Source of the DNA: Streptococcus oralis
Lineage (GTDB): Bacteria > Bacillota > Bacilli > Lactobacillales > Streptococcaceae
NCBI GenBank assembly: GCA_963554735.1
Contig: CAUVSV010000005.1
Coordinates: 20,130 to 84,129 of the forward strand
Direction: 5' to 3'
Length of the DNA: 64,000 nucleotides
The notes beneath the pieces were generated by a model that was not told where the DNA came from, ran no database searches, and saw only the letters and a list, made by a program, of their open reading frames with translations. Numbering within the stretch: position 1 is the stretch's first letter; the number at the start of each line of letters is the position of its first letter. Below are positions 6,125 to 9,735 of this stretch, piece by piece. The position numbers and the translations under genes were made by a program.

Positions 6125-6157
6125 TTGACAGTCATTTTTGTTCATATTATAATATGA
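6125..6157 (+). promoter_or_regulatory. Consensus sigma-A promoter with palindromic candidate operator
   Basis: TTGACA 6125-6130, 17 bp, TATAAT 6148-6153; perfect palindrome TCATATTATAATATGA 6142-6157. Confidence 0.8.
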
Positions 6158-6188
6158 GTAAGAAAAAATTGAACAGGAGGACTGAGAA

Positions 6189-7967
6189 ATGCTAACAGAA
6201 AAACAATTTAAACTTTTGCGTTTTATGTTGATATATAAAGAAAAGACATTTACTCAGCGACAGTTAGCTGAAGAGTTAGACCTATCTTTAGGAACAATCA
6301 ACACATTATTGAAAAAACTGAAAGAAGAGAAGTGGATTGATGAGGAACTTCACTTAACTGAACTAGGCCAAAAAGTTTTAGAACCCTATCGAGTAAAAAA
6401 TGCCATTATAATGGCTGCTGGCATGAGTAGCCGTTTTGCTCCTTTGTCTTATGAGATTCCCAAAGGATTGCTTCAAGTCAAGGGTGAACGCTTGATAGAG
6501 AGGGAAATCAGACAGCTGCAAGAAGCAGGAATAGAAGATATAACCGTTATTGTAGGCTATCTTCAAGAAAAAATGTTCTATCTTGCAGAGAAGTTTGGTG
6601 TAAAAATTGTAGTAAATAATGATTACTACAAATATAATAACTGTTCGTCTCTTATGTTGGTTAAAAATCAACTTTCCAACACTTATATTTGTTCATCGGA
6701 TAATTATTTTGTAGAAAATCCTTTTGAGCAATATATTTATAGGGGTTACTACTCGACGATATTTGCAGAAGGTCAAACGGATGAATATTGTGCTATAGAG
6801 GATTCGAATCACACCATCATTGATATCCAGATTGGTGGAGAAAATACTTGGGCCATGGTGGGACACGTTTATTTCGACCGTGCATTTAGTGAGAAATTCA
6901 AGGAAATTTTAGAAACCGAGTTTAAACACGAACCTCATCGTGAACAGCTTTGGGAGGATTACTATAGTCGGCATGTCAAGGAACTCCTTTTAGAAGCCCG
7001 CCACTATTCAGCGGATATTGTTAAAGAATTTGATTCACTAGATGAACTCCGTCAATTTGATGAACGTTATTTGGTAAATGCAGACTCAGCTATTATCGAT
7101 AATATCTGTAAGACATTAAAGTGTGTGGCTTCAGATATTGTCAATATCAAACCTCTAAAAGATGGATTAACCAACACATCATTTTCATTTGACTGTCTAG
7201 GAAAAAGATATGTTTACCGTCATCCGGGCAGGGGAACGGAAAATTATATCGACCGAGCTAGTGAAGCAGCTTCTATGGAAATTGCTGCAAAATTAAAGAT
7301 TGACCGTACCTTCGTAGCTATGAACAAGGATGAGGGCTGGAAAATTTCAGAATTTATTCCCAATGCTAAGCAACTGGATTATGATAATTGGGATGATGTA
7401 GCACAGGCAATGGACCTCTTGAGACGGTTACACCAATCTGGAGAAAAAACGGAACATTCCTTTGACCAATTTGAGGGAATTGATGATTTTAGAGAAAAAT
7501 TGAAGGCTAGAAATCGATTCGAGTTTGATGGTCTCGAGGAATTGGATGAAACTGTTTCACTTCTCAGAAATTATTTACAGAATGATCTCAAACAGGTTGT
7601 CCTTTGTCATGGAGATTCCTATAGTCCTAATTTCTTGTTGAATGAAGCAGGCGAAATGAGCTTGATTGATTGGGAATATTCTGGAATGGGAGAGCCAGCA
7701 GGAGATTTGGGCACCTTTATCGCGTGTTCCAATTATACCGTAGAGGATGCTGAAAAAGTATTGGAATTGTATTTGCAAGAAGTACCAGATAAGAAAACCA
7801 AACGTCACTATTTGGCTTATGTAGCAGTAACCTCATATTATTGGTTCTTGTGGGCTTTGTTCCAGGAGAGTGTCGGAAAACCAGTTGGTGAGTTCCTCTA
7901 CATCTGGTATCGCTATACCAAACAATATGGACAACTGGCCCTTGACTTGTATTTGGAGGAAAACTAA
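6189..7967 (+). CDS. Fusion of winged HTH, LicC-like cytidylyltransferase and LicA-like choline/ethanolamine kinase
   Basis: TQRQLAEELDLSLGTINTLL (HTH); AIIMAAGMSSRF...PKGLL (NTP transferase); GLTN, LCHGDSYSPNFL and LIDWEYS (choline kinase motifs); RBS AGGAGG. Confidence 0.85.
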   Translation: MLTEKQFKLLRFMLIYKEKTFTQRQLAEELDLSLGTINTLLKKLKEEKWIDEELHLTELGQKVLEPYRVKNAIIMAAGMSSRFAPLSYEIPKGLLQVKGERLIEREIRQLQEAGIEDITVIVGYLQEKMFYLAEKFGVKIVVNNDYYKYNNCSSLMLVKNQLSNTYICSSDNYFVENPFEQYIYRGYYSTIFAEGQTDEYCAIEDSNHTIIDIQIGGENTWAMVGHVYFDRAFSEKFKEILETEFKHEPHREQLWEDYYSRHVKELLLEARHYSADIVKEFDSLDELRQFDERYLVNADSAIIDNICKTLKCVASDIVNIKPLKDGLTNTSFSFDCLGKRYVYRHPGRGTENYIDRASEAASMEIAAKLKIDRTFVAMNKDEGWKISEFIPNAKQLDYDNWDDVAQAMDLLRRLHQSGEKTEHSFDQFEGIDDFREKLKARNRFEFDGLEELDETVSLLRNYLQNDLKQVVLCHGDSYSPNFLLNEAGEMSLIDWEYSGMGEPAGDLGTFIACSNYTVEDAEKVLELYLQEVPDKKTKRHYLAYVAVTSYYWFLWALFQESVGKPVGEFLYIWYRYTKQYGQLALDLYLEEN

Positions 7968-7968
7968 G

Positions 7969-8154
7969 ATGAAAACGACATCCGAAATTGAAGATTTAGT
8001 AGCAACTGAAACAAAGAGAAGATTGGAAGAAATGGAGTCACCAAACTACAAGTTTGTTCAACCCTTCCTAAAAAGTGATTTCATTTTAATCATCTCCATA
8101 GTCCTAATCAACCTTGTTTTGATTATCTTAGCAATGACGGGAGGAATTCAATAA
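7969..8154 (+). CDS. 61-aa protein with a single C-terminal TM helix
   Basis: GGAGGA RBS, ATG 1 nt after the upstream stop; MKTTSEIEDL...FILIISIVLINLVLIILAM; stop 1 nt before the next ATG. Confidence 0.75.
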   Translation: MKTTSEIEDLVATETKRRLEEMESPNYKFVQPFLKSDFILIISIVLINLVLIILAMTGGIQ

Positions 8155-8155
8155 C

Positions 8156-9583
8156 ATGTCTAAAATGAATGACTATATCCAACAAGAAACCATAACTGGA
8201 ATTGTTCCCATGACCAATAAGGATCGTCAGTATTCTTTCTGGGATCTCTTTCTATCGACAAGTGGTTTTGCCATTGCTACTTGGTGTTATACCCAAGGGG
8301 CTTATGTAGCTCAATATTTGACCTTTAATCAAATGTTGATAAATATTTTTAGCTTTAACATTATCTGGGTTTTTATTGAATGTCTCCCTATTTTGTTTGC
8401 GGTTAAGTATGGAATTGATTTGTGGATTTGGTTGAGAGCTGTTCTAGGAAAAAGAGGTGTAGCTCTGTTATCAACCATTATTAGCTTGGCTAACTTTGGA
8501 TGGTATGCTGTTGCGGCCAATCTTTTTGCCAGTTCCATGATCCATTTGGCAAATAATTTTGGTCTTGGTTTGGACAAGGGAGTATGGGCGCCTATTCTTG
8601 GTACCCTCTGTGTTCTTCTTGGGACTCTCATTGCTCTTGGAGGCCCGGAAGTGATTAAATGGACTAATCGCTTCTTGGTTATCGCCTTATTGATTGTCGG
8701 TCTGATTATCGTTGGAATCTGCTTTGTCGCCGTTCCTATAACGGATATTATGAATATCCAACCAGCCACTCAAGGAGATTTGACGCCATTAGAACGCTTC
8801 ATGCTCTCTGGAGAAGGAAATGTTGCCTTTGCCTTTTCTTGGTCTACACAAGCATTGGTCTTGCCACGTTTGGCAAAATCAGAACGCAGTGGTTATTGGG
8901 CTACAGCCTTATCATACGGAGTTGTGGCTCCATTCTTCGTTGCGACAGGTGGAGTCATGGCTCTAGCCATGTTTGTCAAAACAGGTGTTTATGAAAGTGA
9001 TCCAACAACCATGCTTTCAACTCTAAGCACCCCAGCCTTTGCTCTCTTAAGTCTACTACTAGTAGCCTTTGCTAATATTGGAACCCAGGGAACAGGATCA
9101 TATGTGAACTGTATGATTGTCAAAAGCGGGATGCCCAAAGTAAGCTATAAACTAATGGTTTGGATTGCCATGGTTTACGTGAGTCTACTCACTATCTGGG
9201 GAGGAGTAGAAGAGTATTTCGGATCCTTCATCTCCCTAGCCGCCTATATTCAGGGGCCAATTATTGGTATGATTGTTGTCGATTATTTTATCTTAAGGAA
9301 ACGAAAACTCGACTTGCGTTCAGCCTATTTCCTTGAAGGGCATGACGCCTACGAATTTACTAAAGGATTTAACTTAGTTGGCTTGTCTTGCGTATTTATC
9401 TCCTTATTGGTAGCGGTACTTTTTGTCTACAACCCTGTAACTGCACAAATTCAAAGTCCAATCTTTTTAATCACAACTGGTAGCGGATTTACTGCGCTAT
9501 TTGGTGGTCTACTATACTGGCTAGCTAGTCTTAGCTCACTGAAACGTTATATGATAAAAGATCGAGACACTGTTACGATTTAA
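8156..9583 (+). CDS. NCS1 (cytosine/purine/thiamine/allantoin permease)-like transporter
   Basis: 475 aa, about 12 TM segments; ANFGWYAV, KYGIDL..WLRAVLG.RG, GPIIGMIVVDYFILRK, GFN..GL patterns typical of NCS1. Confidence 0.75.
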   Translation: MSKMNDYIQQETITGIVPMTNKDRQYSFWDLFLSTSGFAIATWCYTQGAYVAQYLTFNQMLINIFSFNIIWVFIECLPILFAVKYGIDLWIWLRAVLGKRGVALLSTIISLANFGWYAVAANLFASSMIHLANNFGLGLDKGVWAPILGTLCVLLGTLIALGGPEVIKWTNRFLVIALLIVGLIIVGICFVAVPITDIMNIQPATQGDLTPLERFMLSGEGNVAFAFSWSTQALVLPRLAKSERSGYWATALSYGVVAPFFVATGGVMALAMFVKTGVYESDPTTMLSTLSTPAFALLSLLLVAFANIGTQGTGSYVNCMIVKSGMPKVSYKLMVWIAMVYVSLLTIWGGVEEYFGSFISLAAYIQGPIIGMIVVDYFILRKRKLDLRSAYFLEGHDAYEFTKGFNLVGLSCVFISLLVAVLFVYNPVTAQIQSPIFLITTGSGFTALFGGLLYWLASLSSLKRYMIKDRDTVTI

Positions 9584-9735
9584 GAAGAGGGGGGACTACG
9601 GTTCCCTCTTAATTTATACTGGCATTTTATGCAAATTTCTCAGATTATTCAAAATCTTGAAAAAGAGATGAAAGCGTTTGATAGATTTTCTAAGAAAGTG
9701 TATAATAAAAGTAGCAATATAGAAGGAGAAGTCTC

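Follow-up and report, generated by a model that had tools for sequence, protein, structure and literature searches.

A putative self-regulating cassette for ethanolamine import and activation in Streptococcus oralis and its relatives

In Streptococcus pneumoniae, the lic1 proteins LicB, LicA and LicC import an amino alcohol, phosphorylate it and convert it into its cytidine diphosphate (CDP) form, which is passed on to LicD1/LicD2 and TacF. Fusions of LicC and LicA reportedly occur in Treponema denticola, and a comparable layout is known from NadR, in which a winged helix-turn-helix (wHTH) domain is joined to a nicotinamide mononucleotide adenylyltransferase (NMNAT) and a kinase and works with the transporter PnuC. 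Here a three-gene unit is described that lies on the plus strand between livF and a CBS-ACT gene in a 64,000-nucleotide stretch of the Streptococcus oralis assembly GCA_963554735.1 (contig CAUVSV010000005.1, positions 20,130 to 84,129; hereafter the window). The unit resembles lic1 in its chemistry and NadR in its layout, and it is a member of neither. The reading favoured here, and held to be rather probable, is that it provides an autoregulated route for the import and CDP-activation of ethanolamine which would lead to phosphoethanolamine-bearing teichoic acid, and that it is a candidate basis for the ethanolamine wall of Streptococcus mitis SK598.

S. mitis strains with ethanolamine in the place of choline have reportedly been known since 2003. 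In S. mitis SK598, ethanolamine replaces choline in the wall and in lipoteichoic acid (LTA) even in choline medium (PMC5513899), the strain is resistant to a choline-dependent lysin (PMC4963390), and SK598 and SK601 are the 2 of 57 strains found with an ethanolamine C-polysaccharide (PMC2444020). Phosphocholine on teichoic acid serves as the anchor of choline-binding proteins and is a ligand of C-reactive protein and of the platelet-activating factor receptor (PMC4364537, PMC4929436). In the available text of the three papers on SK598 and SK601 no gene is assigned to the phenotype (PMC2444020, PMC5513899, PMC4963390), and only licABC and licD are mentioned in that of PMC4863584, PMC10434233, PMC4649388 and PMC4929436. 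No published description of the operon, its operator or its transporter was found, and an earlier mention in subscription papers or supplements is possible.

The first gene of the unit (6189-7967, + strand) encodes a wHTH-LicC-LicA fusion of 592 amino acids (aa), the second (7969-8154, +) a single-pass membrane protein of 61 aa that is the probable small subunit of a permease, and the third (8156-9583, +) that permease, an NCS1-fold protein of 475 aa which belongs to an amine-type subfamily and is of allele type a (A120/W169/F225). The likeness to lic1 lies in the import, phosphorylation and CDP-activation of an amino alcohol by homologous enzymes. However, the cassette has a single polypeptide in C-A order with a wHTH and an operator of its own, it uses an NCS1-fold permease with a small subunit instead of the DMT-type LicB, its amine pockets are altered, and it is accessory, being present in 67 of 400 sampled Streptococcus genomes. 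The likeness to NadR consists in a repressor domain fused to a salvage kinase and a nucleotidyltransferase, an adjoining transporter and a putative operator over the promoter, whereas the folds are unrelated (a LicC-type transferase and an APH/choline-kinase fold, with neither an HxGH-type NMN adenylyltransferase nor a P-loop kinase) and the partner is a PF02133 permease rather than PnuC. The NadR-like design proposed in an earlier interpretation of this DNA from its letters alone (the sequence-only reading) therefore holds for the layout, as an analogy only.

The substrate is best approached through five genomes (G027, G070, G072, G102 and G358; 99-100% complete) in which the cassette lies between insertion sequence (IS) remnants directly after licD2, downstream of a block that is in all five the pneumococcal-type licD3-GT-GT-polymerase-tacF-licD1-licD2 set (GT, glycosyltransferase). 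The canonical licA is broken in all five by four different lesions, namely a deletion that removes licA and licB together with the licC 5' end in G027, two frameshifts in G072, a frameshift and a stop in G102, and a stop shared by G070 and G358. Among the 66 assessed of 67 cassette genomes, licA is broken in these five, ambiguous in G165 (whose assembly, 90% complete, shows a stop at codon 24) and intact in 60, and it is broken in none of 80 cassette-free lic1 genomes, which were chosen as controls for having LicC and LicA matches; G320 (82% complete), in which lic1 was not matched, is not included in the count. Set aside were the split licA of the cassette-free G347, where the break is an assembly N-gap, G297 as a lic1 organism, since both LicA and choline-binding repeats are absent from it, and stops at position 4 of the LicB query, which precede the true start and are therefore no lesions. 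TacF recognises the phosphate and accepts phosphoethanolamine, and at least two changes are needed for it to pass unsubstituted polymer (PMC13385700). In the five licA-broken genomes TacF has 0-1 change at the 11 positions linked to choline independence, which suggests that a CDP-amino alcohol is presumably still needed, and most likely it is the cassette that supplies it. The TacF change V32L, found in four of these five genomes, was set aside as a route to unsubstituted teichoic acid, as it concerns a single listed position.

The licA-broken genomes have also lost much of the machinery that recognises choline. Their matches to the choline-binding repeat PF19127 number 12, 14, 17, 13 and 14, compared to 39, 70, 35, 42, 53, 49, 57, 49, 52 and 49 in ten cassette-free genomes (five of them equally fragmented) and 36, 41, 45, 22 and 35 in cassette genomes with an intact licA. 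Furthermore, the catalytic domain of Pce is present in none of the five as against 33 of 35 controls, and that of LytB in one of the five as against 29 of 35 controls, with a clean deletion in the other four. These losses are what would be expected of a wall without choline, and would not be expected if the cassette supplied choline. In four of the five genomes the housekeeping genes are 94-98% identical, about as much as to other mitis-like genomes, while licD1D2 are 99-100% identical, which indicates a horizontal spread of the block; G027, at 85-86%, belongs to a lineage of its own. The gene set of the block fits SK598 and SK601, and the licA-broken, cassette-positive genomes are predicted to have the same ethanolamine chemistry as these strains, from which we infer the link between cassette and phenotype. 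As a separate observation, the licA-broken loci (L042, L043, L213, L214 and L215) share LicD1 F204S and a divergent C-terminal segment of LicD2 (16 positions) relative to 5 controls, which may reflect adaptation or the shared ancestry of the block.

The fusion comprises a wHTH at aa ~1-68 (HTH_24, expectation value (E) 1.8e-6; MarR_2, E 3e-6), a LicC-like cytidylyltransferase at aa 66-296 (match at 66-292, E 2e-38 to pneumococcal LicC, 1jyk) and a LicA-like amino-alcohol kinase at aa 298-592 (match at 309-572, E 2e-23 to 4r77). Its AF2 model (predicted local distance difference test, pLDDT, 88) matches 1jyk at a template modelling (TM) score of 0.92 and 4r7b at 0.83 (target-normalised), and domain matches and model together bear out the joining of a wHTH, a cytidylyltransferase and a choline-kinase domain in one polypeptide. 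The kinase domain is 26% identical to the host's LicA, and the transferase 32% to the host's LicC. The aromatic box of LicC is here taken to be W136/Y190/W191, and the roles of D107 and D218 are likewise assumed. Reference residues for pockets and catalysis were those of PMC4364537 for LicA and PMC6697681 for LicC. All of the LicA catalytic residues T29, D176, N181, D194 and E196 are kept (T328, D476, N481, D494 and E496), as are G14, R18, K28, D107, E216 and D218 of the LicC CTP/Mg2+ motifs (G78, R82, K92, D171, E280 and D282), which supports the earlier idea that the unit would import, phosphorylate and CDP-activate its substrate.

The amine pockets of the fusion are altered to different degrees. 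In the LicC aromatic box W136 is replaced by Y200 and Y190 by L254, with W191 kept as W255, and among twelve aligned NCS1-linked fusions position 190 is L in all and position 136 is Y in eleven and D in one (L179 was left out of this alignment, and the L161 LicC aligned poorly). In the LicA choline pocket Y197, W251 and W254 are kept, while V178 is replaced by Y478, E213 by C513 and Y268 by F569, the first two replacements occurring in 12 of 12 NCS1-linked fusions. The resulting four-residue signature (Y200, L254, Y478, C513) is present in 119 of 120 close homologs. In contrast, W136/Y190 are retained in L189, L190 and L191, and BCCT-linked fusions that lack a second LicC keep W/Y. Judged by these residues, the transferase pocket points away from trimethylammonium and the kinase pocket is ambiguous, so that of the earlier proposal of choline or another amino alcohol as the substrate the amino alcohol stands, and choline appears less likely in view of the LicC pocket and the loss of choline proteins. 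There is a precedent in PntC, a 2-aminoethylphosphonate (AEP) cytidylyltransferase and LicC homolog whose pocket has become smaller to suit a primary amine (PMC6697681). The fusion differs from PntC in having an attached kinase and no phosphonate genes in the unit, and the sequence match is weak (E 1.7e-8); no phosphonate genes (ppm, AEP) were found among the open reading frames (ORFs) of window positions 1-20000, the genome itself not having been searched for ppm. The nearest LicC relatives include two fused to pyridoxal phosphate (PLP) aminotransferases (tree branch 98/100).

The permease matches PF02133 (E 3e-19; 69.6 bits against a cut-off of 23.5) and does not reach the TIGR00800 cut-off (63 bits against 353). 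Its model (pLDDT 94) is closest to Mhp1 and CodB (TM 0.73-0.75, query-normalised; 16-19% identity), which agrees with its earlier description as NCS1-like. The sandwich aromatics of Mhp1 are assumed to be W117 and W220, of which the position of W117 is kept and W220 aligns to N222 (the register of TM6 may be off by one or two positions). At the Na2 site, which may be kept in part, T310 aligns with Mhp1 T313 and G309 with S312. The nucleobase of Mhp1 is hydrogen-bonded by Q42, Q121 and N318 (PMC9379551), which in a profile alignment are replaced by A41, A120 and G314. In addition, W43 is found in 66 of 69 permease rows and E/D220 in 68 of 69, a pattern that seems suited to a cationic amine. The six most distant permease loci all adjoin amine genes (MtbB/MttB/Pyl, MttB at two loci, DmmABC, an arginase-family gene and a EutQ fragment), and these homologs (L152-L157) are a candidate methylamine/amine permease family; at five of the six an ORF of 60-75 aa lies directly upstream. 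Thus, the protein is an NCS1 permease by fold that, as far as its aligned residues tell, fails the nucleobase-site test, which is in line with the non-nucleobase substrate suspected earlier.

A conserved small partner is a further difference from Mhp1 and CodB. The 61-aa protein has one hydrophobic segment (~aa 37-57) and matched no Pfam family, and in at least 58 of 80 loci of clostridia and treponemes the permease gene follows a homologous small ORF, which can be aligned throughout the family. Co-folding of the 61-aa protein with the permease gave 0.84 against 0.00 for the best control, with a partner pLDDT of 82 and agreement between runs in at least 91% of contacts; 116 of 157 solved complexes and 2 of 215 mismatched pairs attained this value, figures that apply only roughly to the alignments used here. 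The model therefore makes the 61-aa protein a probable small subunit of the permease. The permease itself is often doubled, with two matches in 29 of 68 genomes, tandem copies that are ~93% identical, and two stable alleles, a and b, which differ at positions 120, 169 and 225 in the 8 pairs compared. The second tandem copy is preceded by small-gene remnants (L038:8490-11477, L043, L184, L187, L213, L216 and L387), and in G313 and G345 the whole cassette is duplicated.

The unit appears to be controlled by its own first domain. Its ORFs abut with 1-bp gaps behind a sigma-70 promoter, TTGACA-17-TATAAT (6125-6153, +; -35 at 6125-6130, -10 at 6148-6153; 12/12 match), which is the only 12/12 site among 28 in 5000-11000, and they are followed by an intrinsic-terminator-like hairpin (9587-9610, +; 10 pairs, 5 GC), as the sequence-only reading had described. 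The candidate operator, TGTTCA (6139-6144) N25 TGAACA (6170-6175), straddles the -10 box and touches the ribosome-binding site. An inverted repeat TGTTCA-N25/26-TGAACA occurs in 16 of 16 aligned streptococcal promoters, all of which also keep the -35 and -10 boxes; the cores GTTCA/TGAAC are invariant and the spacer varies apart from the enclosed -10 box. Among seven distant triple fusions, six have GTTCA-N24-TGAAC where their gene begins, and the palindrome is present in 54 of 55 gut loci (a redundant set). None of 77 clostridial permeases without a fusion has it upstream, and it is missing from the HTH-LicC and lic1 promoters checked, which indicates that the motif travels with the wHTH fusion and not with the permease. 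The background is 4 in 1.33 Mb, and the single copy in the genome, compared with 0.44 expected, is not significant alone, so that only the conservation counts. The palindrome is likely an operator bound by the wHTH in response to some ligand, which supports the autoregulation proposed earlier; the long distance between its half-sites would fit a large dimer that keeps two wHTH domains well separated, and the single copy makes the regulon appear to be the operon alone. A regulatory role of the widespread wHTH-LicC-LicA family seems undescribed so far. Within this family, a fusion in Collinsella aerofaciens (L384:6900-6975; 44.5% identity) has two tandem palindromes and a DMT partner. In triple or double fusions beside a stand-alone second LicC (L192, L193, L177 and L178) the LicC domain has degenerated (W136 to S, D218 to N) and may serve the wHTH as its ligand sensor.

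The permease was found in 68 of the 400 Streptococcus genomes and the full-length fusion in 67, the sole mismatch being a permease fragment on a 264-bp contig (G033). The cassette occupies at least three sites, namely after livF, at a different place in the most divergent group, and next to licD2 with IS on its flanks. The same gene order is found in contigs of gut metagenomes (40-62% GC; identity ~75% for the permease, 62% for LicC and 51% for LicA), where it was counted by tblastn in 57 of 58 non-streptococcal loci with room upstream (of 71, highly redundant). Thus, the expected co-occurrence of fusion and permease holds in Streptococcus and the gut loci, but not in the wider permease family: sister permeases of clostridia and treponemes (42-46% identity) have LicC/LicA nearby at 0 of 80 loci (flanks of up to 10 kb, shorter on small contigs), and 30 of 39 scored genomes with such a permease have no LicC/LicA at all (G804 lay outside the scored set). 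In an even sample of 401 Bacillota genomes the permease (E 1e-20) was present only in the window's genome (G000) and five others, none of which had a fusion match at E 1e-25, and a plasmid search gave only relatives of <60% identity.

The triple fusion is common in itself, and the transporter is what differs. wHTH-LicC-LicA relatives (29-45% identity) share the domain order of the cassette fusion and of LicCA. They are found next to LicD in polysaccharide loci, in many cases together with a second LicC, and either keep W136/Y190 or have a degenerate LicC; their transporters are BCCT at L177, L190 and L192 (and at L189 by likeness to L190) and LicB/DMT at L161, L193 and L384. The NCS1-linked kinase domains form a clade of their own (100/100). 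The unit contains no LicB or LicD gene in the ORF listing, as the sequence-only reading had said, but the description as self-contained needs qualifying, since contig C42 of this genome carries an intact tarI-tarJ-licA-licB-licC operon, and of the four LicD genes present three lie with pce and tacF in a teichoic-acid locus of the oralis type. This intact choline operon makes the cassette a second route. lic1 DNA was matched in 65 of 66 cassette genomes other than that of the window, and a gut locus encodes a 1198-aa double wHTH-LicC-LicA fusion with one half of each type (L360:4220-7816), followed by a small gene, an NCS1 permease, a separate LicA, a LicB-type EamA, and TagF-like and YidC-sulfatase genes. 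The retention of both routes, in the streptococci with an intact licA and at L360, suggests two substrates.

Several findings weigh against ethanolamine as the substrate or against the reach of the licA-broken genomes. The latter are not five independent tests, as they represent two to four events, and P values for the association are given no weight; the loss of Pce may be mechanical, the block having replaced the site of the oralis-type pce, 6 of 35 controls lack lytB as well, all five genomes retain CbpD, and G165 combines its licA stop with 29 choline-binding repeats. SK598 was not identified among the sampled genomes, phosphocholine was present in every one of the 28 oralis-cluster strains that Kilian (2008) tested (PMC2444020), which makes the cassette of the window's genome probably a fallback, and the word ethanolamine is absent from the available text of the S. 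oralis Uo5 LTA paper. All five licA-broken genomes carry allele b and the window only allele a, the two differing at the pocket-side positions 120 and 225, so that the uptake preference in the window's genome may differ. In the enzyme, the kept aromatic cage (Y197/W251/W254, with F replacing Y268) means that the kinase may still accept choline. A DMT transporter is the partner of a Collinsella fusion whose kinase pocket is similar (F178/C213), and in G757 a LicC with Y136/L190 is paired with a LicB-type gene. D105S and D192E were dropped as specificity markers, being common to BCCT-linked fusions and hence not diagnostic.

Some of these points would suit a second choline route, for example one of higher affinity or Na+-coupled, which would be redundant with lic1 and let licA decay from redundancy alone. 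The closest solved relatives are indeed choline enzymes, the kinase cage is retained, related triple fusions adjoin BCCT or LicB, and allele a has the extra aromatics W169 and F225, but the loss of Pce, LytB and repeats, the clade-wide change of the LicC pocket and the maintenance of both routes in 60 of 66 genomes are left unexplained, which makes this alternative rather improbable. It is improbable too that the substrate is N-methyl- or N,N-dimethylethanolamine, or that a broad cassette has alleles that split ethanolamine from methylated amino alcohols; the doubled permeases with their consistent allele differences and the di- and trimethylamine catabolic genes beside distant permeases would fit, yet ethanolamine is far more available in the host, and no other natural substitute for choline in these walls was found in the literature available. 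A CDP product destined for membrane lipids such as phosphatidylethanolamine, or for another polymer such as capsule, is quite unlikely. A capsule-locus LicD is present in the host genome, and 25 of the 80 sister permeases (L051-L130; Lachnospiraceae, Treponema) are long fusions (ORF >700 aa), with a C-terminal PF01553 acyltransferase region in both of the two that were Pfam-scanned (e.g. L070:10001-12715, P0212), an arrangement which is reminiscent of LplT-Aas and possibly serves lipid-precursor salvage. However, the insertion beside licD1-licD2 and the decay of licA point to teichoic acid, and the unit has no lipid phosphotransferase, the genome not having been searched for one; of the head groups imagined earlier, that on teichoic acid is upheld and a role in lipids is unsupported by any analysis. 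Finally, transport of a nucleobase, cytidine or a thiamine precursor, with the fusion handling the same or an unrelated compound, would agree with the PF02133 match, with weak CytX and ThiK model matches far below cut-off, and with the name 'cytosine permease'; the replaced hydrogen-bonding residues, the amine gene neighbours and the replacement of lic1 by the cassette in the licA-broken genomes make it extremely unlikely.

In the preferred reading, ethanolamine or a close, less-methylated amino alcohol would be imported by a two-subunit NCS1-fold cation symporter, whose ion coupling we infer, converted to its phospho form by the kinase domain and to its CDP form by the transferase domain of this accessory salvage cassette, and placed by the host's LicD enzymes on type IV teichoic acid instead of phosphocholine, while the wHTH would respond to a ligand and bind the palindrome over its own -10 box. 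In S. oralis-like genomes such as that of the window, the cassette beside an intact lic1 may serve as a fallback or give mixed decoration, whereas in a few S. mitis-like lineages it would have moved beside tacF-licD1-licD2 and become the only route, leading to a choline-free wall. A fuller version is put forward more tentatively, as something that could well fall short: a dedicated CDP-ethanolamine pathway with its own enzyme-repressor and a two-subunit amine branch of NCS1 would have moved horizontally with tacF-licD1-licD2, switched the decoration from phosphocholine to phosphoethanolamine with subsequent decay of licA and choline binding, caused the SK598 phenotype and decorated gut anaerobes.

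Other features of the window and its relatives concern the setting of the unit. A terminator-like hairpin (6035..6057, +; a consensus match only) separates it from the liv operon, and at one locus (G202; L187:13049-17681) the cassette is preceded by liv genes whose alleles diverge as a set from those of other streptococcal loci. Cluster names for the unit's proteins are S. oralis, S. infantis and Streptococcus sp., and their database annotations are only 'phosphotransferase', 'cytosine permease' and 'hypothetical'. RNA-library contigs of X4 and X6, both from one study, span the unit and are uninformative on transcription, strand or start. The raw-read run X21 gave no coverage. In the raw-read run X24 the flanking genes are covered, the cassette depth is zero and the junction letters differ, which probably reflects a strain without the cassette. 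Elsewhere in the window, a 1587-aa open frame with long choline/glucan-binding repeats (~46000-50200; G000:C5:66255-70235) is presumably a glucansucrase, and positions 18218-19597 encode a 459-aa surface protein with, by eye, a vWA-like motif and a C-terminal LPDTG anchor.

To conclude, some mouth streptococci and gut bacteria probably carry a self-regulating cassette that imports and activates ethanolamine for the wall in place of choline. If so, this would explain strains that lack the choline coat recognised by host immunity and by the bacterium's own wall enzymes, and the cassette would offer both a testable cause and a genomic marker of ethanolamine S. mitis, namely a cassette beside licD2, a broken licA and no pce. 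Furthermore, NCS1 would then reach beyond nucleobases to amines and involve a small partner subunit, the 'cytosine permease' annotation would be corrected, and an operator would be defined for the widespread wHTH-LicC-LicA family.

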